Below are positions 15,756-41,604 of a DNA stretch of 64,000 nt, in pieces; the first letter of the stretch is position 1, and each line of letters starts with the position of its first letter. Source of the stretch: a virus (taxonomy: Duplodnaviria; Heunggongvirae; Uroviricota; Caudoviricetes); IMG/VR virus record IMGVR_UViG_3300043219_000435; one strand, written 5' to 3'. The notes under the pieces are model-generated. The model was not told the DNA's origin and ran no database searches. It was given only the letters and a program-made list of their open reading frames with translations. The translations under genes were made by a program, and so were the position numbers.

Positions 15756-16004
15756 ATGAGCATGCGTGAAGAATATAGTAAATTGACTAGTTATCAAAAA
15801 TTCATTTTCAACAGTATAAGATATGGGTCAAAACTCGTATCATCTGAAGGTGAAAATTATAAATGTTGTTTAGATATACATGGTAATAAAAAAATGATAA
15901 GAAGAAACTCTGCAGAAATTGTTTGTGATAAAATGAAAGAGTATCTTATATTTGGTGACAATGAAGGTATTATATTTAAAAAACCTAAACGGAAGCAGGA
16001 TTAA
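15756..16004 (+). CDS. hypothetical protein
   Basis: ORF following the motif with RBS AAGGTGAG. Confidence 0.4.
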   Translation: MSMREEYSKLTSYQKFIFNSIRYGSKLVSSEGENYKCCLDIHGNKKMIRRNSAEIVCDKMKEYLIFGDNEGIIFKKPKRKQD

Positions 16005-16637
16005 ATGGATTATGGAAATATAGTAATATTGACGGGTGCAGGAATATCTGCAGAATCTGGAATTCCAACATTCCGTGGTGACGATGGATTGTGGGAAGGT
16101 GAGCCGATTGAAGAAATTGGTACTTCTGAAGGATATAGAAAAGATCCTGAAAGAGTTATTTCTTTTTTAAATGAATTAATAGATAAGTTTGCAGCAAAAC
16201 CAAATGCAGCTCATTACGCTTTAGCTGAAGCGGAAGCTAAAGCAGTATCAAAAGGTTATAAATTTACCTTGATAACTCAGAACATTGATGATTTACATGA
16301 GCAAGCAGGTAGTAAGAATATCTTACATATTCATGGTCAGTTGAACAAAACGGTAATTGATGATAATGGTGAACCAAGACCTGATGTTGTTTTGTTTGGT
16401 GAAAATCCATATCATGTTAAAGAGATTCAGAAGATGATGAAGTTCTGCAGATTGTTTGTATCTATTGGAACATCTGGTGAAGTATTACCGGCAGCATCAT
16501 TTGTTGATTTAGCATTTCGTGGTAGGACTGTAGAACTAAATTTAGAATCTACATGTATCAGTAAACGATTTCAAGAATATTCTTATGGCCCTGCAACTAA
16601 AGTAGTTCCTGAATTTTTCAGCAATATCAATAAATGA
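16005..16637 (+). CDS. Sir2-family NAD-dependent deacylase/ADP-ribosyltransferase (short form without a Zn ribbon)
   Basis: GAGISAESGIPTFRG Rossmann motif; QNIDDLH; HIHG catalytic His. Confidence 0.7.
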   Translation: MDYGNIVILTGAGISAESGIPTFRGDDGLWEGEPIEEIGTSEGYRKDPERVISFLNELIDKFAAKPNAAHYALAEAEAKAVSKGYKFTLITQNIDDLHEQAGSKNILHIHGQLNKTVIDDNGEPRPDVVLFGENPYHVKEIQKMMKFCRLFVSIGTSGEVLPAASFVDLAFRGRTVELNLESTCISKRFQEYSYGPATKVVPEFFSNINK

Positions 16638-16819
16638 CAATTGAGTATTTAGACAGTATTGTATTACCTGAAGAGATTATATATTTAGTTCCATACAACA
16701 TTTATACTATAGAACGATATATAAAATTTCTTAGAAAACAAAATATTTATCAAACGTTTTGGAGTCGTATTACTTTATTTCAAACAGAACAATTTGGTTG
16801 GGAAGTAAATGACAGTTGA
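16634..16819 (+). CDS. LD(S/T)(I/L)V...GWEV family protein
   Basis: MTIEYLDSIVLP...FGWEVNDS; the N-terminus is encoded without the ACTAAAGT motif. Confidence 0.5.
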   Translation: MTIEYLDSIVLPEEIIYLVPYNIYTIERYIKFLRKQNIYQTFWSRITLFQTEQFGWEVNDS

Positions 16820-16994
16820 TTATTTAGACAGTGTTGTATTACCGGAAAAATATTATTATATCGTGCCGTTTCAAGTTAAGTCATTAAGACAATATTTAAA
16901 TTATATGAATAAATATCATAATAGATTGTATAGTGATTATAATAGAATTGTCGTATATCGACCAAAACAAATAGGTTGGGAAGTAAATAGTTGA
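16809..16994 (+). CDS. LD(S/T)(I/L)V...GWEV family protein
   Basis: MTVDYLDSVVLP...IGWEVNS. Confidence 0.5.
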   Translation: MTVDYLDSVVLPEKYYYIVPFQVKSLRQYLNYMNKYHNRLYSDYNRIVVYRPKQIGWEVNS

Positions 16995-17024
16995 AAATGA
17001 ATAATTTTACAAAAGGAAGAAAAA

Positions 17025-17393
17025 ATGACTAAGTTAATAATCGTGCTAAGGAAAGACCTTAATATGCGTAAGGGAAAAATGATCAGCCAAGGTGCTCATG
17101 CCGTTTTAAAAATTTTTACTGATAGAATTACAGATACAGGTTTTTTAGAGACGACTGTAGAGATGGATGAATGGTTAAAAACTGATTACACTAAAATTGC
17201 TTTAGCTGTTAATTCTGAAGAAGAATTGTTGACATTACAAAAAATAGCAGAAGAACAAAATATACCAAATGCTTTAATTAAAGATCTTGGAAAAACTGAA
17301 TTTAATGGTGTCGAAACGTATACTGCTTTAGCTATTGGTCCTGCACAAATAGATATTATTGATGGTATAAGTGGTCATTTAAAATTATTATAG
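17025..17393 (+). CDS. peptidyl-tRNA hydrolase, PTH2 family
   Basis: LIIVLRKDLNMRKGKMISQGAHAV... matches the PTH2 core (GK.AAQ..HA). Confidence 0.7.
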   Translation: MTKLIIVLRKDLNMRKGKMISQGAHAVLKIFTDRITDTGFLETTVEMDEWLKTDYTKIALAVNSEEELLTLQKIAEEQNIPNALIKDLGKTEFNGVETYTALAIGPAQIDIIDGISGHLKLL

Positions 17394-17522
17394 GAATACG
17401 AACTAAAGTAATCAATTGACAATTTTAAGTACTTTAGTTAATATAAACGTGTACGGCACGAGTTTCACAGATGGGTTGTTTAGTCAAGTTCGAATCTTGG
17501 AGCTAAAACCGTATTAACTAAA

Positions 17523-17702
17523 GTAGGTTTTATGAATATTATTACGATTGATGAACAAAATTATGAGATAGTTTATACATCGAAGAAGAGAGATGTTGCA
17601 GCAAATATTTGTTACAAATTGTGCGAATACACACCAGAGCTTTGTCATTGTGAATGTCAATGTGATGATGGTAAAGAATATTATTTAAAGAAAGTAAAAT
17701 AA
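17523..17702 (+). CDS. small Cys-rich protein
   Basis: ..CYKLCEYTPELCHCECQCDDG; follows AACTAAAGTAGG. Confidence 0.35.
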   Translation, partial: VGFMNIITIDEQNYEIVYTSKKRDVAANICYKLCEYTPELCHCECQCDDGKEYYLKKVK

Positions 17703-17867
17703 ATGGAAGTACTTATTGGGCCAGTAGCATTTGGAATCAAATATGGCATATGTCCTATATGTGGTTATGATAAAATAGAGTTAACTGATATTGAATGTTA
17801 TAAATGTGATCAGCCTGTACAACCAGTAGAACGGATACTTACAATAGAATTAAAGGATAAGAAATGA
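17703..17867 (+). CDS. small zinc-ribbon protein
   Basis: CPICGY...CYKCDQ; ATGA overlap with tsf. Confidence 0.35.
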   Translation: MEVLIGPVAFGIKYGICPICGYDKIELTDIECYKCDQPVQPVERILTIELKDKK

Positions 17868-18739
17868 ATATAACAGCATCACAAGTAAAAGAATTAAGAG
17901 AACTGACAGGCATTGGAATGATGCATTGTAAGAAAGCTTTGGTTGAATCTGAAGGTAATATTGAGAAAGCTATTGAGAATCTTCGTAAACAAGGTGAAGA
18001 TCTTTCAAATAAGAGAGCCGGAAAAGATGCCAATGAAGGTTGTGTATTTATAGGTTCTTCTCTTGATAAGACAGCAATTGTTGAGATTAATTGTGAGACT
18101 GATTTTGTAGCAAAGTGTGCAATCTTCCAGGATTTCGGTAAAGCTATTGTTGATTTGTTACTTGAAGGTGATTTCAATGATGTAAATGAATTACTTGGTG
18201 TAGGTATTGATGAGGAAGAGAATATCGAAACACTTGGAGATGCTATTAAACGAATGTCTGGAATGCTCGGTGAAAAGATTGAGATTAAACATTTTGAAAC
18301 TGAAGTAATTGGTGAATTTAATATTGTTGGTACATATTCTCATATGGGTGGTAAGATCGGTGTTATTATTAATTTGACATACAGTGGTTATCATGCAGAT
18401 AAAACGGTTTTAGAGGGTATTGCAAAGAAATTATGTATGCAGGTAGCAGCCACTAAACCAATTGCTGTTCATTCCCATAACGTATCTGAAACGGTCTTAA
18501 ACAAGGAACGTGAGATATACAAAGAACTTGCATTAAAAGCCGGTACTAAAGAAGAATATATTGATCGTCAAATTGAAGGAAAGCTCAAGAAATATCTTAA
18601 AGAAGTTTGTTTGTCTGAACAGAATTATATAAAAGACAATAAGACTTCAGTTGCTAAACTTTTAACAAAAACTGAAGTGGCTATGGGAATTGTTGATTTA
18701 GAGATTGATTCATTTGTTCGTTTTGAGCTTGGAAACTAA
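17864..18739 (+). CDS. tsf: translation elongation factor Ts
   Basis: N-terminal ITASQVKELRELTGIGMMHCKKALVESEGNIEKAIENLRKQG (EF-Ts UBA-like domain); typical length for the family. Confidence 0.85.
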   Translation: MNITASQVKELRELTGIGMMHCKKALVESEGNIEKAIENLRKQGEDLSNKRAGKDANEGCVFIGSSLDKTAIVEINCETDFVAKCAIFQDFGKAIVDLLLEGDFNDVNELLGVGIDEEENIETLGDAIKRMSGMLGEKIEIKHFETEVIGEFNIVGTYSHMGGKIGVIINLTYSGYHADKTVLEGIAKKLCMQVAATKPIAVHSHNVSETVLNKEREIYKELALKAGTKEEYIDRQIEGKLKKYLKEVCLSEQNYIKDNKTSVAKLLTKTEVAMGIVDLEIDSFVRFELGN

Positions 18740-18773
18740 ATTGACAAAGACATTTGAAGCTGTTGCTGTAAAG

Positions 18774-18911
18774 ATGAAAGATGGCAATGTAGGTGTTTGG
18801 ACTGATGGAGTTATGATTCAGAGTGATCATTTAACACATCCATTAGGAGATTATTGTTTCCATAAATTTGTTCCTGGAAATAAGTACAAAATAACAATTG
18901 AGAAAATATGA
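18774..18911 (+). CDS. hypothetical small protein
   Basis: The track ORF begins at 18705 inside tsf; the internal ATG at 18774 is chosen, so the start is uncertain. Confidence 0.3.
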   Translation: MKDGNVGVWTDGVMIQSDHLTHPLGDYCFHKFVPGNKYKITIEKI

Positions 18912-19117
18912 TTGAAGCACAGTTGAAAGAATTAACTAAAACTCCTAAAACTATAGATGGCAATGCTGATCTATCGTTTCATGAAATCTGTTATTGTTCC
19001 AAACTAAAGTTCGGACATACTTGGTATTCCATGAAAGAGATTGAAGTAGGTATGCAGATGTTTGAAAAAGTTAGAGCTGCAGAAGAGTTAAAAAAAATAA
19101 TCGAGGATATTAAATGA
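18908..19117 (+). CDS. hypothetical protein
   Basis: ATGA-coupled ORF. Confidence 0.35.
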   Translation: MIEAQLKELTKTPKTIDGNADLSFHEICYCSKLKFGHTWYSMKEIEVGMQMFEKVRAAEELKKIIEDIK

Positions 19118-19410
19118 AAGAGATATTAAAGAATATAACTAGTGATCGTGACATGAATCTTAATATGTTAATAACGATTTGTATTTCTGGTATTCTGTTG
19201 ATAATAATTTACGGTATAATTTCAAACGTTTCTGCGAAGAATGATATTGATCGTGATAATGCAAAGAACAGGTGTAACTATCACCGGAATGAGGTAATCA
19301 GTAAACATGATAAGATTAAAGAATTGTATAGAGAGTTAGAGATTCAGCAAAGTGAAATAATTCGTTTAGAAGAATTCGAAACTAAAGTGTTAAATAGGAT
19401 AATGAAATAA
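19114..19410 (+). CDS. membrane protein
   Basis: TM helix LITICISGILLIIIYGII. Confidence 0.4.
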   Translation: MKEILKNITSDRDMNLNMLITICISGILLIIIYGIISNVSAKNDIDRDNAKNRCNYHRNEVISKHDKIKELYRELEIQQSEIIRLEEFETKVLNRIMK

Positions 19411-19412
19411 TT

Positions 19413-19718
19413 ATGGAAGAAGAATATTTAGAAAAAAGACTTAAGAGTCAAGAAGAAAAAGTGGAAGATATGATACAACATCATGATCGAAGATTAATGA
19501 GAATACTATCAGAAAATTTCATATCTCTTACCTGGATGGTAGCGTTTATTTGTATGACGTTTGTATTGTCTTGTTTTACAGACTGTGTAATGAAAAATAA
19601 CACAGAAGATAATAAACGCTATTATGATATGGAAAAGATTAAATTGGATAATGAGATTAGGCGTTTAAGAAAGTTGGAAAAGAAAGTTATAAACGATGCA
19701 ATTGGATATACAGAATAA
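19413..19718 (+). CDS. membrane protein
   Basis: TM helix LTWMVAFICMTFVLSCF. Confidence 0.4.
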   Translation: MEEEYLEKRLKSQEEKVEDMIQHHDRRLMRILSENFISLTWMVAFICMTFVLSCFTDCVMKNNTEDNKRYYDMEKIKLDNEIRRLRKLEKKVINDAIGYTE

Positions 19719-19886
19719 TTGTTGAATACAACTGAAGTAATTGTTACTTTAGTTGTATTGGTTTATAGCTAAAGCTGTCGGCTATTGTATATTCGTTAAA
19801 AAGGACACACCATAATGTCAGCCTCGCTTTCAAGGCCGAGACATAGGGAAAGCTTCGATGAATATTCATAAATCATACTAGGGAAA

Positions 19887-19912
19887 GGAGCAATAATTTG
19901 CTCCTTTTTTTA
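19887..19912 (+). terminator. rho-independent terminator
   Basis: GGAGCAATAATTTGCTCC hairpin followed by TTTTTTT. Confidence 0.6.
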
Positions 19913-20476
19913 TACCAATTCCTGGCATTCAGGGCACTTTTTCTCATCAGTTCTTATATATTTTTTATCTACAAAATCAACTAACCATACATCATTTCCT
20001 GTTTTATAAAAGTTAATTCCATCTTCAAACATTGCTTTAGCATCAATCAATGTAACCGCAGCTTTACCTCTTCTTTCTGCAACGTCTACTGCAGTATTAA
20101 TGTTGTCAGATAAATGTACATGATGCCTGGACATCTTTTTAATGCCAGTATTTAATATTGAAGACAATGATTTTATTGGGGTTCCGTGGAATAAAACATC
20201 CGGTGGTTTTATAGCTTCCAACTGAAGTATAACTTTTATCGAATGTCCTTGTTGGGCTTTGATTTTCAATCCATCTTCACTTAATATGAAGCGTTTTTTG
20301 TCATTCTTAGCCACAACTTCTTCAATTATGTCCCTGGTCAAGTCATATTTAGTAGTTTTTTGAATAAGTTCGTCAACATATGCCCAACCATGTTCATCAA
20401 TATTTAAATTTATAGATTCTGGTTTATGTCTTAATATTAAGCTTAAATATTTGGAGATGTGTGTTAATTTTTTCAT
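19910..20476 (-). CDS. kptA: RNA 2'-phosphotransferase Tpt1/KptA
   Basis: ISKYLSLILRHKPE...HGW..VDEL...KKRF.....G..I.A.QGHS...HGT...RHHVHLS aligns with KptA over the full length. Confidence 0.85.
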   Translation of the reverse strand: MKKLTHISKYLSLILRHKPESINLNIDEHGWAYVDELIQKTTKYDLTRDIIEEVVAKNDKKRFILSEDGLKIKAQQGHSIKVILQLEAIKPPDVLFHGTPIKSLSSILNTGIKKMSRHHVHLSDNINTAVDVAERRGKAAVTLIDAKAMFEDGINFYKTGNDVWLVDFVDKKYIRTDEKKCPECQELV

Positions 20477-20521
20477 ATGTTTTCTATTTTTATATAAAAT
20501 ATAATTACTTTAGTTGGAAAT

Positions 20522-20899
20522 ATGGACAATTCAGAATATTGTGAAACAAAAGTTGCTCAAGACTTAGGATTAGCACCAGATTGGAAAGAAAAACTGGCAA
20601 AATTGTTAGAGGGAAGTGAACCAACTCGATTTATGGAAATGCACCAATGTCAAAAAGATATTTTCGAGAAAATTCCCAATCATAAAGAATTTCTTGATCG
20701 TGAAATTGAATCAGTTGCTAAAAATTACTATGAACGATTAGAAAAAACAGCAAACATCATAAAAGACTCATTTGGACAGGGTTATTATATGAAAAATGAA
20801 AAAACTTTAGTTGATGCCTGGGAAAACAGCGAAGCTAAAGCAGCTTACGATTCAATTTTTGTAAAAATTGAAGAAAAAAAGAACTCCACGAATCAATAG
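20522..20899 (+). CDS. hypothetical protein
   Basis: ORF following TACTTTAGTT. Confidence 0.4.
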   Translation: MDNSEYCETKVAQDLGLAPDWKEKLAKLLEGSEPTRFMEMHQCQKDIFEKIPNHKEFLDREIESVAKNYYERLEKTANIIKDSFGQGYYMKNEKTLVDAWENSEAKAAYDSIFVKIEEKKNSTNQ

Positions 20900-20904
20900 A
20901 CAAT

Positions 20905-21438
20905 TTAATTTAAATAGTTCTCAACTAAAGTAATTTCATCTTCATAATAAGGAAAAACTGTATCAAAATCTGTAGAAAAAGTTTTTAATTCTTCCAGGTT
21001 AATCCATTTTACTTCAGAAAGCTCTTCTGTTTGAATGATGAATTTATCTAGATCTTTTTCTCTACATTTTACAATAAAAACATCATTTATCTCGTGATCT
21101 ATAAATTTTCCATTATTAGAAATGGATTTCTTTTTTAATGACTTTATAAATTTAACATCTGCAGGAAATAATATAATACCTAATTCTTCGAAGACTTCTT
21201 TAATGACAGTTCTGAATGATCGATCACCGGCAACAACATGGCCACCACAAGAAATGTCCCACATTCCAGGAAAGGAATCTTTATTCTCAGATCGTTTTTG
21301 AATAAGAATTTGTTTATCTTCATTTATTAACCAGACATGAACCGATAAGTGCCATAAGCCTTCTTTATGAGCCTGTTCCCGTGGTGCTGTATTTCCGGTT
21401 TGTGTTCCGTCTTCATTTAATATATCTAAATATTCCAT
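20905..21438 (-). CDS. Nudix hydrolase
   Basis: Nudix box GGHVVAGDRSFRTVIKEVFEELGI. Confidence 0.7.
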   Translation of the reverse strand: MEYLDILNEDGTQTGNTAPREQAHKEGLWHLSVHVWLINEDKQILIQKRSENKDSFPGMWDISCGGHVVAGDRSFRTVIKEVFEELGIILFPADVKFIKSLKKKSISNNGKFIDHEINDVFIVKCREKDLDKFIIQTEELSEVKWINLEELKTFSTDFDTVFPYYEDEITLVENYLN

Positions 21439-21704
21439 TATTTTTCCGGTTTTAATTTTGTAACTATACCATCAATATATCCAGGCCAACTATCCACAAA
21501 TGATGATTCATTGTGTTCACGAAATCCTATAAAAACAATTCTTAACATTTCAACAGGTGTAGCAACGACCACTGCAACCGCAATACATATAAATGCTGGA
21601 ATTGTAAATATCACATATATTAATCTTTTAATCATTCCTATCATATTGTTCTCGATTTTATTTCTTTTTCTTTTTTTAATAACCAATCTTTCAACTCCAA
21701 CCAT
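21438..21704 (-). CDS. membrane protein
   Basis: TM helix VIFTIPAFICIAVAVVVA. Confidence 0.4.
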   Translation of the reverse strand: MVGVERLVIKKRKRNKIENNMIGMIKRLIYVIFTIPAFICIAVAVVVATPVEMLRIVFIGFREHNESSFVDSWPGYIDGIVTKLKPEK

Positions 21705-21916
21705 ATTTTTTTGTCACAATCATTACCTAACATATCGGTTTTATCTCCATAATCAATATCTTTTATAATTTGATTTACAGAATTGCCATCTAATACATCA
21801 TGATAATTTTTTATTAATTCAGAAGATTCGAGAGTAGCATATGTTTTTCTTCCTAATGCATATCTGAAAGTACAGATTAACAAAGTTCTTAATTCAGTAC
21901 GAGGTATCATTATCAT
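21641..21916 (-). CDS. hypothetical protein
   Basis: ORF overlapping its neighbours. Confidence 0.35.
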   Translation of the reverse strand: MIMIPRTELRTLLICTFRYALGRKTYATLESSELIKNYHDVLDGNSVNQIIKDIDYGDKTDMLGNDCDKKIWLELKDWLLKKEKEIKSRTI

Positions 21917-22314
21917 GTGAACTTCTTTTTTAAACGTTCAAATTCATCTTTTTCTTCTTTTTCTAGTTCTTCTTTTTTAGCTTTAGCTTCAACGTCTTTA
22001 TGTTCTCTATCTGCTTTAGCAGCAAGTTCTTTTTTCATGTTTACAACAACAAGAATATCTTCATTCGACATATTCAATTCTTCAAATTGAACTGAAGTAT
22101 AAACCTCTTCACCTCTACAACAACTACAAGTTGTATCTTCATAGAATACTACTTCTAAATAATCGTTTTCATAATCAACTGAAGTGGCTGAATCATAAGA
22201 TGACAACTCTTCCGAACCATATCTTTTTAATGATGCAACTCTTATTGCAGCTTTATCAATTTCTGCTGTTTTAGTATAACATTCGGTTATATATTCTTTA
22301 GTAAAGGTTTTCAT
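21913..22314 (-). CDS. hypothetical protein with a K/E-rich tail
   Basis: ORF; CSCCRGEE motif. Confidence 0.4.
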   Translation of the reverse strand: MKTFTKEYITECYTKTAEIDKAAIRVASLKRYGSEELSSYDSATSVDYENDYLEVVFYEDTTCSCCRGEEVYTSVQFEELNMSNEDILVVVNMKKELAAKADREHKDVEAKAKKEELEKEEKDEFERLKKKFT

Positions 22315-22377
22315 AATTATCTAAGACTGAAGTACTTACACATCATTTAAATATTATTTAATGGCTTGTCAATAATA

Positions 22378-22593
22378 TTATTCTGGTATATTCATCCAGG
22401 CTACAATAAGACTGTCATCTATCCAAAACTTCCCGTTTCTACCCCAGCGATTGTGTTCTTTGTTGTACCAACCAAAAGTACACATCTTTACAGTATTTCG
22501 TTGATATTTAATTAAAACGGGTTCACCATCTTCCGGCAATCTATCTTTTACATCAATCCAATCTGAATTATTTGAATTCATTCCACTTACCAT
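22378..22593 (-). CDS. hypothetical protein
   Basis: ORF. Confidence 0.35.
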   Translation of the reverse strand: MVSGMNSNNSDWIDVKDRLPEDGEPVLIKYQRNTVKMCTFGWYNKEHNRWGRNGKFWIDDSLIVAWMNIPE

Positions 22594-22837
22594 TTTCTTG
22601 TTGAATTATCATTTCAAGATAATGAAGAGCCTTCTTAAGATCTTCCATTCCATTTTTAAGCTTATATCTGGTAACATACTTAACAACATTTCCTTGGAAA
22701 TAGTCCAGTTTGTTTGCATAAATATATTGGATAGGTTGAATAGCTTGTTTAGTATAATGATCGCCACCGATTTGATGATCAAAGGTTGTTTTAATTTCAC
22801 CTGTATTTATTATTTTATCTCTGCTACTAGGAGGCAT
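22568..22837 (-). CDS. hypothetical protein
   Basis: ORF. Confidence 0.35.
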   Translation of the reverse strand: MPPSSRDKIINTGEIKTTFDHQIGGDHYTKQAIQPIQYIYANKLDYFQGNVVKYVTRYKLKNGMEDLKKALHYLEMIIQQENGKWNEFK

Positions 22838-22896
22838 ATATACTCCGGTTATTGTTTAATAACTAAAGTACATATTTTTTATTAACTAGTCAATGA

Positions 22897-23322
22897 TTAT
22901 GGTGACGGTAGTAAATTTTTCCAGGCATCTTTTTTAAAACTGCCTTCGGAAATTTTATTTGGCTTAATATCAATCGAATGATTTATAGGCTTTGGATATG
23001 TCGCATCAATCCATCTTGATTGATTTCTACACCTGAATGGCTTGTCAGATAATCCATTTTGTTGTTGATAATACTCAGACATGTCTTCCATAAAATAAAA
23101 CAATTCAGCAGGACTCAACTTTAGTTTATACAATATATTACAAAAACTACCCATCGTTGGCAAATGATCTCCATGGATTATCCTCGACACTGAAGAAGGA
23201 TAGGTATTTAATTTAAAAGACATTTCTTTTGTACTTAAGTCATGTCTTTTCATATAAAGCCTAACTATTTTTTGAAACGGGTTATCGGAACGAATTCTTT
23301 TGACTTTTTTAACTTTGGGCAT
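22897..23322 (-). CDS. HTH (XRE/Cro-like) DNA-binding protein
   Basis: LSTKEMSFKLNTYPSSVSRIIHG helix-turn-helix. Confidence 0.5.
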   Translation of the reverse strand: MPKVKKVKRIRSDNPFQKIVRLYMKRHDLSTKEMSFKLNTYPSSVSRIIHGDHLPTMGSFCNILYKLKLSPAELFYFMEDMSEYYQQQNGLSDKPFRCRNQSRWIDATYPKPINHSIDIKPNKISEGSFKKDAWKNLLPSP

Positions 23323-23680
23323 TAAATATTAATCCTATAAATTTTTTCAAATATCTTATTTGTTCTAGATATGTACATATTTCACGATCAGGCTCTGCTT
23401 CAATATCAGAATATTTATTATTAGCATAATCAAAGGATCTTTTTATTAATTCATCCATGTATCCATATTGAAATCTTTCTTTAAGATAATTTTCTTGATG
23501 AATCCAAAACGCACCTGTACCTTTTGATTCATCTAACCATTCATCAAGACATGCATGTAAAAATTCTCTCCTCTTTTTTGTTAATTTTAAAAGATCACAT
23601 TCGGGAGGACAAATATCACTATGAATTTTCGTTCCATCGTCTTTGAGATATTCTATTTGTGCATGTACATTATTTTTCAT
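23309..23680 (-). CDS. hypothetical protein
   Basis: ORF. Confidence 0.4.
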   Translation of the reverse strand: MKNNVHAQIEYLKDDGTKIHSDICPPECDLLKLTKKRREFLHACLDEWLDESKGTGAFWIHQENYLKERFQYGYMDELIKRSFDYANNKYSDIEAEPDREICTYLEQIRYLKKFIGLIFNAQS

Positions 23681-24153
23681 CTACTATGATTCCAGGCAGT
23701 TCGATAATGAATATTTAATTTTTTTGCAATATCAGGCAAAGACATTTTTTTATATTGCAATTCTTTAACTTTTTTTCTTAAAGTAATGCGTTGAATTTCA
23801 CGCATAGTGATTTTAGTATTATCATGTTCTGGATGGTTTATAAAAAATTGAGTGATTAAATATCTTGAAATCGTTGCTTGTGCAATTCCAAGATCTTCAA
23901 TAATATCAGCAGTAGATTTTCCTTCCATATGCATTTCATAAACACGTTCCATTTTTTCTTTTTTTGATAATTTTAATTTTTTTATTGGTCCAACCATAGT
24001 AATCAATTCTCTTAGAGAATGACTATAAACTTTACTTTTATATCTTATTGATAATCTTCCAAATTTGTCATATGGAACAACTGTATTAACTCGATAAACA
24101 ATTTTTGTGTTTAAATCTATACAGTGATTTGGATACTTTGGTATTATTTTCAT
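23677..24153 (-). CDS. DNA-binding protein with two HTH motifs (regulator or sigma-region-4-like)
   Basis: ADIIEDLGIAQATISRYL and LPDIAKKLNIHYRTAWNH. Confidence 0.45.
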   Translation of the reverse strand: MKIIPKYPNHCIDLNTKIVYRVNTVVPYDKFGRLSIRYKSKVYSHSLRELITMVGPIKKLKLSKKEKMERVYEMHMEGKSTADIIEDLGIAQATISRYLITQFFINHPEHDNTKITMREIQRITLRKKVKELQYKKMSLPDIAKKLNIHYRTAWNHSR

Positions 24154-24419
24154 TTTTTCCCTTTAAAAAATAAATGAGTCGATAGGTTATTATCCTACTT
24201 GCCTTATCCACGTACATTTTAATCCTATTATAACCGAAGCTACCATTCCGATAATGTGGATTATATCAGAGGTAATTACGCTGTTTCACATTATAATACA
24301 GACTCACTTCACAGTGCAACTCATCTATCAATAAAAACTAAAGTAATTTATATCATTTTTAATGTCAATACATAAATGATATGTTATATTATAACAATGA
24401 AAATTTATTAAGGATTAAT
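24154..24419. promoter_or_regulatory. 266-bp divergent intergenic control region
   Basis: Largest non-coding gap apart from the RNA clusters; lies between divergent operons and contains AACTAAAGTA, GTCAATA-N12-TTATATT and an AAGGAT RBS. Confidence 0.4.
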
Positions 24420-25079
24420 ATGAAAGTACTTATAACAGCCGGTAGCACCAAAACAATGATTGACCAAGTAAGATGTATCACCAACGTCTTTAAAGGCCGT
24501 ACAGGGGCTGATATGGCAGAATACTTTGGTGCAAATGGTCATTATGTTGATTTATTAACATCGAATACAGATATCAAATTAATGAACAATGTAATGGTCC
24601 TTCCTCATTACAAAACATATGATGATTTGTTTGAGTCAATGAAAAAATTTATTACTATGAAAAAATATGATGTGATTATTCATAGTGCTGCAGTATCAGA
24701 TTATAAACCTGATGGGATATTTAAACCTGATATGTCGTCTGGTGAATTGGAATTAGAATGTGTTTCTTCAGCAACTAAAGTAAGTTCTGATCATGATGAA
24801 CTTTATATCAAAATGATTCCTACAGAAAAGATAATAGATAAAATTCGTTCTGAATGGGGTTTTGAAGGTACTTTAGTTAAGTTCAAGTTACAAGTTGATA
24901 TGAAAGATAAAGAGTTAATATCGGTAGCCCAGGAATCTCGCAAAGCAAGTAATGCTGATATTATTGTTGCAAACTGTTTAGAATGGGCAAGAGAAAGAGC
25001 ATATATTTGTGATGATAATGGACATTTAAATGTTAAACGTTGTAATCTATCTAAAAAATTATTGGAGAAGATTAGCTAA
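24420..25079 (+). CDS. coaB: phosphopantothenate-cysteine ligase (CoaB domain)
   Basis: MKVLITAGSTKTMIDQVRCITNVFKGRTG...AAVSDY matches the CoaB domain of CoaBC. Confidence 0.75.
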   Translation: MKVLITAGSTKTMIDQVRCITNVFKGRTGADMAEYFGANGHYVDLLTSNTDIKLMNNVMVLPHYKTYDDLFESMKKFITMKKYDVIIHSAAVSDYKPDGIFKPDMSSGELELECVSSATKVSSDHDELYIKMIPTEKIIDKIRSEWGFEGTLVKFKLQVDMKDKELISVAQESRKASNADIIVANCLEWARERAYICDDNGHLNVKRCNLSKKLLEKIS

Positions 25080-25639
25080 TGAATATATTATTAGGAATCA
25101 CCGGATCTATCAGTGCATATAAAGCATGTGATATCATATCTGGATTAAATGCTACCGGCCATGATGTTAAAGTAATAATGACTGAAGATGCTAAAAACTT
25201 TATAACTGAAATGAGTTTATCAATTATTTCCGGTAGAGAAGTTGTTTCAAAATTTTCAACTGAAGTAACTGGTCAGGTTGAACATATTGATCTGGCTGAG
25301 TGGGGAGAAATGTTATTAATTGCTCCTGCTACTGCCAATACAATTGCAAAACTTGCAAATGGAATTTGTGATAATGTATTGACTGCAACCGCTTTAGCTT
25401 TTCGAGGAAAGTTTAAAATACTTGCTCCTGCAATGAATACTCTAATGTATGACCATAAAACAACCAAAGGCAATTTAAAAAAACTTGGGGGTAAATTTTC
25501 TGAAAAAAATGTTTGGCATATTATTGAACCTGATGAAGGATTGTTAGCTTGTGGTGAAACCGGAGTTGGTAAATTACGAAAACCTAGAAGGATCGTTGAA
25601 ATAATAAACAAACTGGTAACTTTAAAAGAGGAAATATAA
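25079..25639 (+). CDS. coaC: phosphopantothenoylcysteine decarboxylase (CoaC flavoprotein)
   Basis: LLGITGSISAYKA..GH.V.V.MTE.A..FI; LIAPATANTIAKLANG; PAMN..M. Confidence 0.8.
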   Translation: MNILLGITGSISAYKACDIISGLNATGHDVKVIMTEDAKNFITEMSLSIISGREVVSKFSTEVTGQVEHIDLAEWGEMLLIAPATANTIAKLANGICDNVLTATALAFRGKFKILAPAMNTLMYDHKTTKGNLKKLGGKFSEKNVWHIIEPDEGLLACGETGVGKLRKPRRIVEIINKLVTLKEEI

Positions 25640-26835
25640 TGAGCAAAGCAGTATTCGCATTCTCTGCAGATCCAATAACATTTGGACATATTGATATAAT
25701 CAAAAGAGCATTAACTATGTTTGATGAAGTTATAATTGCCATTGGTAATAATACTGAGAAAACATATTTGTTTCCAACAGAAAAAAGAATTGAAATGACA
25801 ATTGATGCTTTAGCTACTATTGGACATGTAAATCAATATCCATATACAAATACAGTTAAAACATATGAAGGTTTATTAATTGATTTTGCATATGAACAAA
25901 AAGCAAATGTAATCGTAAGAGGAGTTCGAAATGCTGCCGATTTTGATTATGAAAAAAGAATGGCTTTGTGTGGTGAATCCCAGGATCTTGATATAGAAAC
26001 CGTTTTGTTAATGTCAAATCAAAAATATGAACATGTATCTTCTGGATCTGTAAAATCTCTTTTAAAAAGTGGGGGCTTCATTCATAAGATGGTTCCTCTC
26101 AATGTTAAATATAATCTTGAAAAAGAACTGCTAAAGCAATATATAATTGGTGTAACTGGTGAGATGGGTTCCGGCAAATCATTTGTTACTAAAAAATTAA
26201 TTGAAAAGATCGAATCAAAAGGTTATGAAGTTCATCATCTGGATCTTGATAAGATTGCTCACGAAGTATTGAAAGATTTAAAACAACCTGCTTATGTAAA
26301 TGTAAGAAAAATGCTGATAAGTACTTTTGGATTGGTTCATCAATGCAATGACGATTATATTGACCGTGCAGAAATAGGTAAAATTATTTTTGCTGATAAA
26401 AATGATATGGAAACATTTAATTCTATAATGCTTAAACCAATGCTCACAAGAATCAAGAAAGAACTGTTTGGCAAGAAAGGAATCATTCTTTTCAACAGTG
26501 CATTATTGGCTGAAGCAGATTGGAATTTGATCTGTAATAATTTTGTAATACTTATTAATACAACCAAAGAACTTCAGTTAAAGCGTTTACTAAATCGTGG
26601 CTTGGATGAAGATCAAATTAAAGAACGTCTTGATAATCAATTGAGTTTTGAAGATAAATACAATAAGATTTATTCTGATATAACAAAACATAATCAAGGT
26701 AAAACTTTTGTGTTCGAAAATACTTTAGATGATCTTGAACCAGAATTGGAAAGAGTCACAACTGAAGTAATTAGTTCAATTATTAATACTGAAAATTATG
26801 ATGCCTATTACCAAGAAGTAAATGGTTTACTTTAA
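25639..26835 (+). CDS. coaDE: bifunctional phosphopantetheine adenylyltransferase / dephospho-CoA kinase
   Basis: N-terminal AVFAFSADPITFGHIDII..RGVRNAADFDYE (CoaD); C-terminal IIGVTGEMGSGKSFV... with a P-loop (CoaE). Confidence 0.8.
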   Translation: MSKAVFAFSADPITFGHIDIIKRALTMFDEVIIAIGNNTEKTYLFPTEKRIEMTIDALATIGHVNQYPYTNTVKTYEGLLIDFAYEQKANVIVRGVRNAADFDYEKRMALCGESQDLDIETVLLMSNQKYEHVSSGSVKSLLKSGGFIHKMVPLNVKYNLEKELLKQYIIGVTGEMGSGKSFVTKKLIEKIESKGYEVHHLDLDKIAHEVLKDLKQPAYVNVRKMLISTFGLVHQCNDDYIDRAEIGKIIFADKNDMETFNSIMLKPMLTRIKKELFGKKGIILFNSALLAEADWNLICNNFVILINTTKELQLKRLLNRGLDEDQIKERLDNQLSFEDKYNKIYSDITKHNQGKTFVFENTLDDLEPELERVTTEVISSIINTENYDAYYQEVNGLL

Positions 26836-26841
26836 ATAAAA

Positions 26842-26880
26842 AGAGAGTTGGACATAGTGTACCCAACTCTCTCTTATTCT
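26842..26880. terminator. hairpin terminator between convergent genes
   Basis: AGAGAGTTGG-loop-CCAACTCTCT followed by a T-rich stretch. Confidence 0.5.
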
Positions 26881-26949
26881 TGGAAATGCATCAAACGATG
26901 CTCAAACAAAATAAATTAATTATTTTGTTTGGTCAACAATTATTATTTG

Positions 26950-27909
26950 TTATTTGCTACCTGCAGCTACTTCCGCAACTTTTTTGATAGTTGCTGCGTC
27001 AGCTTGTGCATTAAGAGCACTCTTAGCCATATCAGAAATTTGATTTACTTGATTTTCGATGATTGAATTTGATTTGTCAAGTTGAGCAATAAGATCTGTT
27101 ATTTTTTCCTCTAAAGAATTAATTCTTCCTTCCTGGATCTCAGCTTTAGATTCAGCACCCATTTTTGCCATACTAGAAGCATACTGTGCAGATCTTTTTG
27201 CTTTATCTTCACCGTCAACATATGATTTAGCAACTTTTTCTGCAGTCGAGTTTTCAAGCTCTGTGATCTTATTATTGAGAACTTCAACTTCTGCTTCACG
27301 TTGCTCAAGATCATCTTCACGACCATTGAGTTCCGTTTCACGAGTATCAAGAGATTTGAGTTTTGTACGAAGTGCATCATCAACAGCATCATTTGACATT
27401 GAACGTTTTCTGTCTGTCTCATATGAATAAACTTCAAGTTCACGTCTACGAGAAACTTCAAGATCATTTTTCTTGTCTGATGAATTCTCAATAATTTCAT
27501 TGTAATAAGTGTCAGCACGATCTCTGATGTCTTTTGCTTTTTCGTCAGCATCAGTAACCAGTTTTTCTTTAACTGCAGCTAAAGCAGCAAGATCATTTGC
27601 ACTTACTTCAATACCATGAACATCTTTAAGCTCAGCTTTTTTAGCTTCGATAGCAGTAATGATATCTTCATATTGACTTTTAAGATCAGTAATTTGACCA
27701 ACTAAAGTACTAAGAACACCATCAATAGCACTAATGTCCATTGAGTTTGCACTTGCAATAGAACCTTTGATTTTAGCTTCTGTTGCTTTAGCTGTTGTAG
27801 TGATTGGTCCACCTTGAATAGCTTCCAATTTTGCTTTTTGCTCTTTGTATGCATCCCACAAATCTTTTTTTGTTGAACCCATGAATTTAATTCCGTTATT
27901 ATCTGACAT
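26950..27909 (-). CDS. long coiled-coil protein (function unknown)
   Basis: Heptad-rich E/K/A sequence with no catalytic motifs. Confidence 0.4.
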   Translation of the reverse strand: MSDNNGIKFMGSTKKDLWDAYKEQKAKLEAIQGGPITTTAKATEAKIKGSIASANSMDISAIDGVLSTLVGQITDLKSQYEDIITAIEAKKAELKDVHGIEVSANDLAALAAVKEKLVTDADEKAKDIRDRADTYYNEIIENSSDKKNDLEVSRRRELEVYSYETDRKRSMSNDAVDDALRTKLKSLDTRETELNGREDDLEQREAEVEVLNNKITELENSTAEKVAKSYVDGEDKAKRSAQYASSMAKMGAESKAEIQEGRINSLEEKITDLIAQLDKSNSIIENQVNQISDMAKSALNAQADAATIKKVAEVAAGSK

Positions 27910-28134
27910 ATGTACTCCTTATTAATTCCGTTATTGTCATGTATAGAATATAATAACAATTAATATTACTTGTCAATACAATTAATAAAAAATATTAATT
28001 ATTATTAAATTTTATTAATAATAACTGTAATGAATATGTGTTTTTAAACTCAACAATAAGAACTTGTTGACAGACTAAATGGATATTGTTACTTTAGTTG
28101 TACAATCATTTTTGTTCATTATGATTGCCTTTTG

Positions 28135-28172
28135 AAAAAACAGATCTTTTGGCTAAGGATCTGTTTTTTTTT
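28135..28172. terminator. bidirectional rho-independent terminator
   Basis: A-run, then CAGATCTTT..AAGGATCTG hairpin, then T9. Confidence 0.6.
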
Positions 28173-28467
28173 ATGATTTGAAGCAATGTTTTATTTTATC
28201 TGCATATTTTAAGTAGAAGCCGGAGATCTCCGTCAACATATTTTTCTTAGTATCGAGTTTCGGATTTTCGAGGATACAATCAGCTTTTGATAAATGTAAA
28301 TTCATCTCACTAATCATATCTCTTTTCATCAACCGTTCTAAATGAACAACTTCAATTATTGCTAATAATGAATTTGGATCTTCAGCTAAAGCAACGATAA
28401 TTTGATAATGTTTTTCTTTATCAGAATCAGAAGAGTTAACTATTTCTGTAATCTTTTCCAGGTTCAT
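28171..28467 (-). CDS. hypothetical protein
   Basis: ORF. Confidence 0.4.
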   Translation of the reverse strand: MNLEKITEIVNSSDSDKEKHYQIIVALAEDPNSLLAIIEVVHLERLMKRDMISEMNLHLSKADCILENPKLDTKKNMLTEISGFYLKYADKIKHCFKS

Positions 28468-28924
28468 CTTTTATTCCTAATAGTTCATGAATTTCTTTTG
28501 GTGTGGGTGCCGGTGGCATATATTTCCAAAGTATTACAGGATCTATTCTATCTATCCTACATCTACCTTCGGGACCTTCAGCAGATGTCATATCAAAACC
28601 TGTTTTACGCATATAGCTATCTTCGTGTACATCCGGTTTATTTCCCATATGAGATACCCAGCAAGGATCATACTCAATAGCCAAAACACTCTTACCATAC
28701 ATTGGCTTAGGTACTTCAGGGAGGCCCTTACGCACGTCTATCCATGGATCTATATCATTAACTGTCAAGTTCAATGCTTTTATCAAATCTTTCTTACGTA
28801 CTTTAGTTGAAATAGTAGCTTTTTGTCCAACCGGATTAAGTCCACAGATTCTGTGACCATTAATATAAATGGTAGGATCTTTAGTAACATAAAATACATC
28901 TAATTCAATTAGTTCATTTTTCAT
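28436..28924 (-). CDS. hypothetical protein
   Basis: ORF of 162 aa. Confidence 0.4.
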   Translation of the reverse strand: MKNELIELDVFYVTKDPTIYINGHRICGLNPVGQKATISTKVRKKDLIKALNLTVNDIDPWIDVRKGLPEVPKPMYGKSVLAIEYDPCWVSHMGNKPDVHEDSYMRKTGFDMTSAEGPEGRCRIDRIDPVILWKYMPPAPTPKEIHELLGIKDEPGKDYRNS

Positions 28925-29106
28925 GAAATACCTTCTAAAAAATATCTTAATTTAAGTTCATGAGTATCTACTTGAATACCAATAATAGCATTTCTTAATT
29001 TATTATGATCTATTGGCTTTTCCTCTGATTCCAAGTTAATAGATTGTTGTACAATTGATAGTAATTTTTCCTCTATGATAGTAATTCTTTTTAAACCATC
29101 ACCCAT
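28921..29106 (-). CDS. hypothetical protein
   Basis: ORF. Confidence 0.35.
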   Translation of the reverse strand: MGDGLKRITIIEEKLLSIVQQSINLESEEKPIDHNKLRNAIIGIQVDTHELKLRYFLEGIS

Positions 29107-29263
29107 TCTTATACCATACTACAAATTTATCTATTATTGATGATATGACAGCACCGCCCATAAAGAACATAACACTGGTTTTCGGCAAATCAAAAAGCAT
29201 TGCTGCGAGGTTTATATTTATGAATATTAATGTCCATATCAATACTACCATCGTTATCTCACT

Positions 29264-29521
29264 TTAGTCTAATTTAAACAGTTTATGATCATTGTCTATC
29301 ATTGATACCAAATTCCCCAGGGAGAATATTAAATCATATGATTGATCTACAATATCAAAACCGATATCTGATCTGTTGGAAAAACTACATTCAGGATTAT
29401 GCTTGCTGCTTGTAGATGCACAACGATATTCCTTATATTGTTCTCTTATTTCTATAATAATGTAACACGGTTCACCAATATAAGGATTTTTACAACGTAT
29501 TACATCACCAAGTCTAAGCAT
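29264..29521 (-). CDS. hypothetical protein
   Basis: ORF. Confidence 0.35.
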   Translation of the reverse strand: MLRLGDVIRCKNPYIGEPCYIIIEIREQYKEYRCASTSSKHNPECSFSNRSDIGFDIVDQSYDLIFSLGNLVSMIDNDHKLFKLD

Positions 29522-29786
29522 GTTTATTATGCTTCGTTTTTAATAAATCTGTAAAATTGAAAAAATCTTCATGAGCCTTCCGTATTTTTGCTTTAAGCTC
29601 AACCATAAATACATCATTGAAAAAATGAAATCCATCATGAAATTCAACAACTAAAGTAACTTTACCTTGAGCAATTTTAACATAAACGATTCCTGCAGGA
29701 AATTGCATTTTATCATCTACCTTTAATGAAAAGAAAGATTTAAAGGGATTACCCTGTAACGATATTTGTATGCCATCTATAATCAT
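29514..29786 (-). CDS. hypothetical protein
   Basis: ORF. Confidence 0.35.
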   Translation of the reverse strand: MIIDGIQISLQGNPFKSFFSLKVDDKMQFPAGIVYVKIAQGKVTLVVEFHDGFHFFNDVFMVELKAKIRKAHEDFFNFTDLLKTKHNKHA

Positions 29787-30277
29787 TTATTAAGTTGTCC
29801 TCCAACTAATCTATCATATGCTTTCATATATTTGATTAATCGTCTAGAAAACGATTCTTGAGAATCTATTGACCAATCACCAAATACACGTCTTGACACA
29901 TCCAAATTGTGACGAAGATCTTCTATCTTAACTTCCCTGGCAATATCATTCTGTGCAACTATTTCAACATATTCTTCATAAGAATGTTTTTCTTTATCAT
30001 GAGTTAACGCACTGACTGCAGCTACAATTTCATAACTAAAGTCATATGACAAATCTTCTATAGTAATTTCATTCTTTTTACCCTTAGTATCTTCAACCAC
30101 ATCATGTAAGACAGCAACGATTAAAAATCTTTCATCAAAATTTTTTTCTTTTAATTTATGCATTACATGCATTGGATGAAATATATAAGGTCTTCCACTT
30201 TTATCCATTTGTCCTGCATGACCTGTAACGGATATGATTATTGCTCTATCTATATCATTCATAATTATCCTTTTCAA
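29783..30277 (-). CDS. small alarmone hydrolase (RelA/SpoT-type HD (p)ppGpp hydrolase)
   Basis: VTGHAGQMDKSGRPYIFHPMHV...VAVLHDVVEDT, the HD-domain signature of SpoT/Mesh1. Confidence 0.7.
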   Translation of the reverse strand: MKRIIMNDIDRAIIISVTGHAGQMDKSGRPYIFHPMHVMHKLKEKNFDERFLIVAVLHDVVEDTKGKKNEITIEDLSYDFSYEIVAAVSALTHDKEKHSYEEYVEIVAQNDIAREVKIEDLRHNLDVSRRVFGDWSIDSQESFSRRLIKYMKAYDRLVGGQLNK

Positions 30278-32867: not shown

Positions 32868-32876
32868 GATATCTCC

Positions 32877-33542
32877 CTATTGTTTTTTTAATAATTGATT
32901 ATTGTTTTTTATTGCTTTGAATATATGATTGTTTTTTTCTGTTAAAATTACTTCAGTTCCTTGCTTAAACTCAACATTCTCTTCATCAGGCTCAACCATT
33001 ATATGATGAGTAGTGCCATGATGATCTTGAAATTTTGCCGAAGCCGGATAATTCAACTTTGCTGTACCTAAAGTTATAATAGCAACTTCACCGATAAACG
33101 AATCTTCTGATATTGATTGAGATTCATCATCAGGAATAATTTTATTTAACATGTTTGCACATGTTTTTATTATCGGTACAGAAATTACTATAGCCAGGAT
33201 ACTTGCAATGAATGAAGGAAAAAACTGAAGTAATATGGATTTTGATATTATCTGTATTAAATATCCAGACAAACCAAAAGTTGTTAATGCGAGTATTAAC
33301 AAAATTAGTATTGGTACTTTACCAATACAGAACCAAGTTAATATTCTTGAAAAGAAATCCGGTGTATCAAAATTATCTGGCACATCAGTATCAATATCAA
33401 AATCTGGTAATATTGAATCCAAAAGATTAGAAAATCCGACACCAATTAATAAACCAAAACCTTCCATAAATGATATAGTAATCATTATTCCAATTGCTAC
33501 AGTAAATGGAAGATTCTCGTTTGCTAAAATTAAATCAATCAT
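32877..33542 (-). CDS. NfeD-like membrane protein (flotillin partner)
   Basis: Multi-TM N-terminus plus a C-terminal soluble beta-domain; lies immediately upstream of the flotillin, as in yqiJ-yqiK. Confidence 0.5.
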   Translation of the reverse strand: MIDLILANENLPFTVAIGIMITISFMEGFGLLIGVGFSNLLDSILPDFDIDTDVPDNFDTPDFFSRILTWFCIGKVPILILLILALTTFGLSGYLIQIISKSILLQFFPSFIASILAIVISVPIIKTCANMLNKIIPDDESQSISEDSFIGEVAIITLGTAKLNYPASAKFQDHHGTTHHIMVEPDEENVEFKQGTEVILTEKNNHIFKAIKNNNQLLKKQ

Positions 33543-41181: not shown

Positions 41182-41195
41182 TTTAAATCCTTAAG

Positions 41196-41270: not shown

Positions 41271-41276
41271 ATAATA

Positions 41277-41591: not shown

Positions 41592-41604
41592 TTTAACTCC
41601 TAAG

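Follow-up and report, generated by a model that had tools for sequence, protein, structure and literature searches.

In a 64-kb window of DNA (64,000 nucleotides, the whole stretch analysed here) from the Caudoviricetes virus record IMGVR_UViG_3300043219_000435, a Sir2 protein, a Nudix hydrolase, a stand-alone HD-domain hydrolase and the nicotinamide adenine dinucleotide (NAD)-dependent DNA ligase LigA had been proposed to form a counter-defence set acting on alarmones and NAD. Our analysis suggests, with a probability of about 0.6, that they are independent and catalytically competent cargo genes of a jumbo-phage accessory region and not a coordinated alarmone/NAD module. All four open reading frames (ORFs) were found exactly where the first-pass annotation had placed them, each with a highly significant domain match:

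16005-16637, plus strand: CobB-derived class III sirtuin of 210 residues, zinc (Zn) module absent and acyl pocket remodelled (PF02146, E = 6e-32)
20905-21438, minus strand: Nudix hydrolase of the YfcD/isopentenyl diphosphate (IPP) isomerase-like clade, 177 residues (PF00293, E = 2e-18)
29783-30277, minus strand: small alarmone hydrolase with an HD domain, Aph1/PbcSpo type, 164 residues (PF13328 HD_4, E = 1.5e-8; phrog_990, E = 4e-43)
47540-49531, plus strand: full-length NAD-dependent DNA ligase LigA, 663 residues (NF005932, 760 bits against a cutoff of 369; TIGR00575, 731 against 444)

The catalytic residues of the HD and Nudix proteins, whose loss had been named beforehand as speaking against the proposal, are present, as are those of Sir2 and LigA. 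The idea of a set fails on gene organisation: the four genes are unlinked and their linkage is not conserved elsewhere; they lie on both strands across 33 kb with dozens of ORFs between them. The earlier gene list was correct in what it named but passed over a second NAD-dependent enzyme and a pathway for coenzyme A (CoA):

19910-20476, minus strand: KptA/Tpt1, NAD-dependent RNA 2'-phosphotransferase (PF01885, E = 7e-49, 167 bits against a cutoff of 26)
24381-25079 (CoaB), 25079-25639 (CoaC) and 25639-26835 (CoaD-CoaE fusion), plus strand: CoA cluster (Pfam DFP, Flavoprotein, CTP_transf_like plus CoaE)

KptA, LigA and the sirtuin all spend NAD, and the window ORFs that were scanned contain no Macro, NADAR, 2H, cREC or NAD-salvage gene; with no salvage gene found, this suggests NAD dependence rather than NAD protection. 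Moreover large phages often carry genes of each of the four classes, so that their co-occurrence needs no special explanation: 45% of jumbo phages have a Nudix (PMC9503650), and among phage records 536 have a sirtuin, 393 an alarmone hydrolase and 1,318 LigA.

From the sequence we conclude that the window is an accessory region of an uncultivated jumbo phage of low GC content. GC is about 30% throughout, and 139 mostly short ORFs give a coding density of 89%. Several ORFs match phage-only PHROG families (phrog_11947, 9e-20; phrog_236, DUF3310-type, 4e-23; phrog_924; phrog_990). The 64 kb are part of a JGI contig of 131,247 bp on which the proteins of the window are recorded. The sole relative that we found is another jumbo-phage contig, here L021 (JGI 3300043172, Ga0484852_0000002, 248,963 bp), which carries within 20 kb orthologues of the HD protein (56% identity), Nudix (54%), KptA (54%), the RNA ligase RtcB (78%), a radical-SAM protein (66%) and CoaD-CoaE (46%), together with several hypothetical genes also common to both and in partly conserved order. 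Neither INPHARED nor IMG/VR holds a close relative of the window, megablast of the 14-kb region against 50,697 phage records gave no match, and a 50-mer taken from the Sir2 gene has no exact copy in IMG/VR. A lineage-specific protein of 319 residues found no match in viral and metagenome collections, a search by RtcB alignment led to three viral loci that have otherwise no genes in common with the window, and a PHROG scan of ten flanking ORFs gave zero matches.

Among the four genes the HD protein is, on our analysis, the only plausible candidate for genuine counter-defence. Its best match in the Protein Data Bank (PDB) is 7SMG, the "(p)ppApp hydrolase" Aph1 (E = 9e-20, 43% identity over 133 residues), and the matches to Rel/SpoT (1e-10 to 1e-9) and to Mesh1, PaSAH and CgSAH (1e-4 to 1e-2) are weaker. 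The catalytic set is intact, with H34, H58-D59, E62-D63, D120 and N124 aligned to H33, H53-D54, E57-D58, D110 and N114 of Aph1. Five of the six Aph1 signature residues are kept (D24, D116, R119, K133 and Y134, here D25, D126, R129, K149 and Y150), and these include both specificity determinants, D24 and R119. The residues R43, R44 and S45 that contact guanine in TtRel are replaced by D25, K26 and S27 (via D24, K25 and A26 of Aph1). When the C-terminal 66 residues (99-164) were searched alone against 177,635 PDB sequences the sole match was 7smg, a weak one at E = 0.006. The ORF as listed begins with a TTG at 30277, an uncertain start, and translation may instead begin at the in-frame ATG of codon 6 (MNDIDRA...).

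Two features define the Aph family, a C-terminal part homologous to ~53 residues of Aph1 (Y90-E143) and the six signature residues, and it is the C-terminal homology that separates Aph proteins from (p)ppGpp hydrolases (Ahmad et al., PMC10083569). All 12 of 12 Aph1 homologues assayed in that study hydrolysed ppApp and only two had modest ppGpp activity, and specificity was set by D24 and R119, whose double mutation conferred activity on ppGpp (PMC10083569). Because the window protein is far closer to Aph1 than to Rel, SpoT or Mesh1 and carries D24 and R119, its substrates are predicted to be adenosine 3'-pyrophosphates, probably (p)ppApp or pyrophosphorylated CCA ends of tRNAs and not ppGpp. 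Homologues occur in 393 phage records, the closest being Seunavirus orthologues of the PVP-SE1 hydrolase; the Seunavirus gene GAP31_029 is annotated as similar to PVP-SE1 ADP02616. The stand-alone hydrolases of phages PVP-SE1 (PbcSpo) and SSU5 (PaSpo) neutralise five classes of toxic small alarmone synthetases (toxSAS), namely CapRel, PhRel, PhRel2, FaRel2 and FaRel (Jimmy et al. 2020, PMC7229694), and the SSU5 enzyme removes from tRNAs the modification that FaRel2 introduces (bioRxiv 10.1101/2024.07.05.602228). The earlier proposal of a stand-alone HD protein that counters defence by hydrolysing ppGpp is thus supported in one half: the protein is intact and its phage homologues neutralise toxSAS, but the specificity residues are those of Aph1 and the ppGpp target is probably wrong, which makes an effect on the stringent response the less likely role. 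Counter-defence by phage alarmone hydrolases is itself already in the literature.

Sequence comparison and structural modelling both place the Sir2 protein in the deacylase class and not the NADase class. E. coli CobB (1s5p/6rxm) is matched at E ~4e-50 in two segments, one on each side of the missing Zn module, identity to bacterial CobB proteins (226-250 residues) is 47-54%, and the window sirtuin is the sole sequence of 210 residues among the 120 best matches. The AlphaFold2 model has a mean predicted local distance difference test (pLDDT) score of 91, with CobB as the top Foldseek match (TM 0.91), and the top 50 PDB structures are all CobB, SIRT5 or the archaeal Sir2 deacylase Sir2Af. No PADLOC defence-SIR2 model matched the protein, the lone PADLOC match being marginal and unrelated (E = 0.006). 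On the PADLOC and Foldseek results a Thoeris/DSR-like NADase (ThsA, DSR, SIR2-HerA, SPARSA) is rejected, which answers the choice between deacylase and NADase that the first-pass annotation had left to be made. The link to Thoeris that it had drawn is not supported; an enzyme of the CobB type would consume NAD and not protect it.

The short form without a Zn ribbon was described correctly: compared with 29 bacterial CobB proteins, a clean in-frame deletion removes about 25 residues bearing both CxxC pairs, and just two cysteines are left (Cys148 and Cys184), both outside the region of the module. The NAD-binding and catalytic motifs are kept (GAGIS at 11, F23-R24, TQNID at 91, H110-G111, FGE at 131, GTS at 155 and N179), as are 52 of 52 invariant columns in an alignment of 30 sequences that includes the 29 bacterial proteins. 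At positions conserved in at least 90% of bacterial CobB the sirtuin deviates in 14 of 82, and individual bacterial sequences in 0 to 6. The deviations include the Zn cysteines. The pair that reads acidic acyl groups such as succinyl-lysine, Y92 and R95 of CobB, has become L55 and L58 (28 of the 29 bacterial proteins have the Tyr and 27 have the Arg), the equivalent of A76 is Gly, and Leu replaces Trp in VWFGE as well as Tyr in VYPAAG. All NCBIfam CobB equivalogs fall below cutoff (NF001755, 200 against 318; NF040867, 161 against 320). The phage sirtuins of INPHARED, in 536 records from rV5-like, T5-like, jumbo and Streptomyces phages, are only 25-40% identical to the window protein, against 47-54% for bacterial CobB, which argues for a separate and recent capture from a bacterium. 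Loss of Zn ligands is found elsewhere: one viral homologue of 204 residues (L010) also lacks the module, several others retain its length without the CxxC pairs, and two Orbaceae CobB proteins have partly lost the ligands. Twenty viral contigs with a Sir2 locus were compared with the window, and beyond Sir2 they had nothing in common with it, so that the neighbourhood is not conserved. A Zn-less Sir2 orthologue is missing from the protein database in which the Nudix of the relative L021 is found, and the sirtuin seems to be absent from that phage.

The Nudix hydrolase had been taken to act on NAD or ADP-ribose, and this assignment is not upheld. Its Nudix box (residues 66-88) reads G66-x5-D72-x7-K80-E81-V-F-E84-E85-L-G-I, with the three REx2EE glutamates kept and two conservative changes, Asp for the first Glu of the box and Lys for the Arg. 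In the PDB it comes closest to E. coli YfcD (2e-12), followed by type 1 IPP isomerase (IDI; 4e-11), and both corresponding NCBIfam equivalogs stay below cutoff (IDI NF002995, 82 bits against 127; YfcD, 64 against 152). The model (pLDDT 93) has YfcD, IDI and DR0079 as top Foldseek matches at TM ~0.8, and the ADP-ribose- or NAD-binding structures NrtR, NudC and NUDT12 rank below 36 with TM ~0.54. Nudix subfamilies are told apart by a Pro about 15-16 residues after the box in ADP-ribose pyrophosphatase (ADPRase), by SQPWPFPxS in NudC and by the NuCoA motif ending in FPGG in CoA pyrophosphatases. Residues 15-17 past the box are here K, K and S, without the ADPRase Pro, and neither SQPWPFPxS nor the NuCoA motif is present; on motifs, homology and fold all three activities are rejected. 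Type 1 IPP isomerase, the JGI annotation, is rejected as well: C67, Y104 and W161 are Gly (G65), Lys and Thr, just E116, H32 and H69 are kept, and no member of the family has a Cys at the C67 position. According to Iyer et al. (2022, PMC9503650) most Nudix domains of phages belong to the NudE or the NadM clade, and this one lies outside both. It matches 7 of 50,697 phage records, none T4-like, and its clade is known but uncharacterised and rare in phages. Its bacterial homologues (39-44% identical) have housekeeping chromosomal contexts, one among Mur ligases and another in the ParAB/GdpP/L9/DnaB region typical of Firmicutes.

The only hint of a link between this Nudix and NAD is its position near KptA. 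The two genes are ~0.5 kb apart here and ~3 kb apart in L021, and between them lies a small ORF common to both genomes:

20522-20899, plus strand: conserved hypothetical ORF assigned to neither a Pfam nor a PHROG family; L021 has a homologue (40% identity) in the corresponding place, with Nudix and KptA on either side

As only two related genomes are involved, the proximity may be plain inherited synteny.

KptA is the clearest NAD-consuming enzyme within 16005-30277. Its Arg-His-Arg-Arg tetrad is intact (R16, H17, R62 and R117) and its best NCBIfam equivalog, NF002014, scores 227 bits, just short of the cutoff of 239. LigA has all of its domains (Ia, adenylation with KxDG, OB, Zn finger, HhH and BRCT), K115 lies in KxDG, and the domain Ia equivalents of Y22, D32 and D36 are kept. 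With homologues in more than 1,300 phage records it counts as an ordinary enzyme of replication; the counter-defence role proposed for it is not supported. The three genes of the CoA cluster cover four steps of CoA synthesis, and no pantothenate kinase was seen within the window. Both halves of the CoaD-CoaE fusion score above cutoff (TIGR01510, 149 bits; TIGR00152, 83 bits). The fusion is nearly absent from the phage database, where one uncultured phage of 735 kb spans both halves at 29% identity, and metagenomes hold at least 279 fused homologues, many labelled as candidate phyla radiation (CPR) bacteria or DPANN archaea. In the literature that we searched, phage CoA pathways receive passing mentions only, as viral auxiliary metabolic genes.

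The sirtuin gene belongs to a tightly packed block on the plus strand, where its start abuts the stop of an ORF of 82 residues (15756-16004) and its stop overlaps an ORF of 61 residues. The latter is the first of two tandem, overlapping paralogues of 61 residues (16634-16819 and 16809-16994, plus strand), both beginning MT(I/V)(E/D)YLDS(I/V)VLPE and without homologues in any locus fetched. Pth2 and elongation factor Ts (EF-Ts) follow 0.4 kb and 1.2 kb downstream of the sirtuin:

17025-17393, plus strand: peptidyl-tRNA hydrolase Pth2 (PF01981, E = 1.5e-31; TIGR00283, 96 bits against a cutoff of 82)
17864-18739, plus strand: EF-Ts (PF00889, E = 7.5e-55; TIGR00116, 241 bits against a cutoff of 104)

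Both are phage-encoded; Pth2 is of the archaeal/eukaryotic type and EF-Ts is full-length. A stand-alone ORF of 54 residues (17703-17867, plus strand) with a Zn-ribbon-like CPIC...CYKC pattern lies 1 kb downstream of the Zn-less sirtuin, which may be coincidence.

Further genes for RNA repair and, with Ro60, for RNA quality control lie in the rest of the window:

41816-42919, minus strand: RtcB RNA ligase (PF01139, E = 1e-90; 78% identical in L021)
53593-54528, minus strand: RlaP-family nucleotidyltransferase (PF10127, E = 1.5e-19)
61835-63517, minus strand: Ro60/Rsr with TROVE and vWA domains (PF05731, E = 4e-23; PF25045, E = 8e-11)

The RNA genes comprise two tRNA-Trp, one tRNA-Ser-like gene and further tRNA-like elements. 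From this co-location the dominant theme of the region would appear to be the repair or protection of RNA and the translation machinery, with Pth2, EF-Ts, KptA, RtcB, RlaP, Ro60, the tRNAs and the HD protein as its members. The two tRNA-Trp(CCA) genes lie 0.3 kb apart at 41195-41677 (minus strand), immediately downstream of RtcB. One of them is overlapped by an ORF (41277-41675) of which 107 residues match L021 at 76% identity, so that either the ORF or the underlying DNA is conserved. Just downstream of Ro60 (60637-61612, minus strand) four tRNA-model matches stand in a row. Two have lengths of 144 and 156 nt, which points to tRNA-like folds into which long segments are inserted; another, tRNA-Ser(GCT) according to ARAGORN, has 73 nt and is short for a bacterial tRNA-Ser. 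These elements may be YrlA-type Y RNAs that partner Ro60. Stress genes are present too: a membrane-stress module at 31122-34201 (minus strand) with consecutive flotillin/SPFH (YqiK-like), YqiJ and PspA/IM30 genes, a Ter-type cluster at 56878-60489 (minus strand) with a Na/Ca exchanger, two TerD and a weak TerB-like ORF, and an ORF with a GmrSD_C nuclease domain (54525-55070) near the Ter cluster and RlaP.

Read as independent cargo, the genes would work as follows. Judging from its homologues, the HD protein most likely strips the 3'-pyrophosphate from (p)ppApp and from tRNA CCA ends that toxSAS/CapRel-type toxins have pyrophosphorylated, and would in this way rescue ATP pools and tRNA charging. 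NAD would serve KptA as co-substrate in the healing of RNA ends and LigA in the joining of DNA, which would make the phage NAD-dependent and not NAD-manipulating. The sirtuin, as a recent acquisition of CobB, would most likely be an NAD-dependent deacylase or an ADP-ribosyl-transferring enzyme acting on a narrowed and more hydrophobic substrate, possibly one related to translation given its co-orientation with Pth2 and EF-Ts. The Nudix would be a YfcD/IDI-like hydrolase of the housekeeping type, acquired from a host resembling Firmicutes. Conserved proximity makes the ADP-ribose 1'',2''-cyclic phosphate product of KptA a possible substrate for it, one for which homology offers no support.

Several points weigh against this account. 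In the HD protein the Aph1 signature residue R96 is Ile (I106), the likeness of its C-terminal part to Aph1, when that part is taken alone, is weak, two Aph clusters do have modest ppGpp activity (PMC10083569), and ATfaRel (PbcSpo) has been described as a (p)ppGpp-degrading enzyme, so that the window protein may hydrolyse ppGpp as well. The ~131-kb contig extends beyond the 64 kb, and genes for NAD salvage, (p)ppApp synthesis or ADP-ribose processing could lie there. Phage origin is argued from PHROG matches, gene architecture and the related large contig, and no structural genes were seen within the window. A scan for promoters and terminators gave counts at chance level, so operon structure and boundaries are not established. 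The theme of translation and RNA repair is read from co-location only, and ligation by RtcB leaves no 2'-phosphate, which leaves KptA without an evident partner ligase.

These points have to be set beside other ways of reading the same genes. That Sir2, Nudix, HD and LigA nevertheless form a functional set, manipulating alarmone and NAD/ADP-ribose pools against Thoeris, Sir2-effector and ppGpp-linked defences, seems to us distinctly unlikely. All four keep their catalytic residues, phage alarmone hydrolases do neutralise toxSAS toxins (PMC7229694), phage Nudix, Macro and related domains have been argued often to counter signals derived from ADP-ribose (Iyer et al. 2022, PMC9503650), and in both related phages the distance between Nudix and KptA stays below ~4 kb. 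Yet this Nudix is YfcD/IDI-like, outside NudE/NadM and without any of the three subfamily motifs, the Sir2 is of the CobB type, would consume NAD and has no match among defence models, LigA is ubiquitous in phages, the HD protein bears determinants for (p)ppApp and not ppGpp, and the genes are scattered over 33 kb of both strands without a Macro, NADAR, 2H or NAD-salvage gene among the ORFs scanned. A metabolic role unconnected with defence is unlikely too. In such a scheme sirtuin, CoA pathway and Nudix would reprogramme the acyl-CoA and acetylation metabolism of the host to fuel phage production, for example by activating acyl-CoA synthetases through deacetylation while the supply of CoA rises. 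The canonical role of CobB is to deacetylate and thereby activate AMP-forming acyl-CoA synthetases. The sirtuin is closest to bacterial CobB, three genes for four steps of CoA synthesis lie 8 kb from it, CoaD-CoaE is conserved in L021, and the bacterial relatives of the Nudix sit in housekeeping contexts. However, Sir2 does not lie next to the CoA genes and is apparently missing from L021, the window shows no pantothenate kinase, and 14 deviations at conserved positions, in acyl pocket and Zn module, make canonical CobB substrates doubtful.

It is tempting to speculate, though we think it improbable, that the remodelled sirtuin is a new phage effector on the translation apparatus that erases acyl or ADP-ribosyl marks set by host toxins on elongation factors or aminoacyl-tRNA; it would then join the Aph1-type hydrolase, which would strip 3'-pyrophosphate from tRNA, and KptA, RtcB, RlaP and Ro60 in an arsenal against translation shut-off, with the Nudix clearing ADP-ribose by-products. 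Very improbable is a sirtuin that works as an RNA-end ADP-ribosyltransferase, KptA-like, in tRNA repair. Such a role was proposed by Iyer et al. (2022, PMC9503650, section 3.7.3) for a clade of phage sirtuins associated with genes for 2H, Nudix, cREC or RNA ligase, and the window is indeed rich in RNA-repair genes, with Sir2 in the strand block of Pth2. But at 25-36% identity the rV5-like, T5-like and jumbo-phage sirtuins are much further from it than cellular CobB (47-54%), a bona fide KptA is already present, the scanned ORFs hold no 2H or cREC partner, and the peptide-binding FGE loop is kept. We give least credence to the HD protein being an immunity factor against the phage's own (p)ppApp-synthesising toxin and not a countermeasure to host defence. 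Aph1 itself is phage-encoded immunity to such a synthetase, the MuF-fused toxin Apk2 (PMC10083569), and the HD protein is 43% identical to it. On the other side, no RelA/SpoT-type synthetase matched among the scanned window ORFs of at least 160 residues, the HD gene is flanked in both the window and L021 by ORFs that do not exceed ~146 residues and in which no family was detected, and Aph homologues are mostly not adjacent to toxins (PMC10083569).

Taken together the evidence favours independent cargo genes and leaves current concepts unchanged, every gene class being already known in phages; the idea of a NAD+-ADP-ribose network (Iyer et al. 2022) and phage hydrolases against toxSAS (Jimmy et al. 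2020) are likewise known. What changes is annotation. The HD gene is better read as an adenosine-3'-pyrophosphate hydrolase, for (p)ppApp or tRNA, than as a ppGpp hydrolase, and so read it is a candidate anti-toxSAS/CapRel factor in a lineage without a cultured relative. The Nudix should be counted neither as a NAD/ADP-ribose enzyme nor as the IPP isomerase of the source database. The sirtuin offers a natural experiment, a CobB that has lost the Zn module and the acidic-acyl pair and retained every NAD-binding and catalytic residue, which could reveal the purpose that the Zn module serves and any drift of such proteins toward new substrates. The related contig L021 could anchor comparative work on this phage lineage.

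How do these genes compare with known systems? Iyer, Burroughs, Anantharaman and Aravind (2022, PMC9503650) set out a viral NAD+-ADP-ribose network, and it resembles the window in that a jumbo phage has KptA, a sirtuin, Nudix, a NAD-dependent ligase and RNA-repair genes in an accessory region. The window differs in that its Nudix lies outside the NudE and NadM clades and its sirtuin outside the rV5/T5/jumbo "RNA-repair" clade, and we saw in it no partner of the Macro, 2H, cREC or NAD-salvage kind. With E. coli CobB and human SIRT5 the sirtuin has in common the Rossmann fold, the NAD motifs, the catalytic His and the FGE peptide-binding loop at 43-54% identity, and it departs from them in lacking the Cys4 Zn module and the Y92/R95 pair. 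The Nudix has the sub-fold of E. coli YfcD (2FKB) and type 1 IDI, with the N-terminal extension and the two His residues equivalent to IDI H32 and H69; the substrate of YfcD itself is not established, so that no function can be transferred from it. The closest parallels are those of the HD protein. Compared with Aph1 (7SMG) it has a 6-residue insertion before the C-terminal helix, and its gene lacks an adjacent toxin gene and sits beside orphan ORFs in a jumbo-phage accessory region. Aph1, PbcSpo of PVP-SE1 and the window protein all consist of a single HD domain of ~150-165 residues, and like PbcSpo the window protein is phage-encoded and stands alone.

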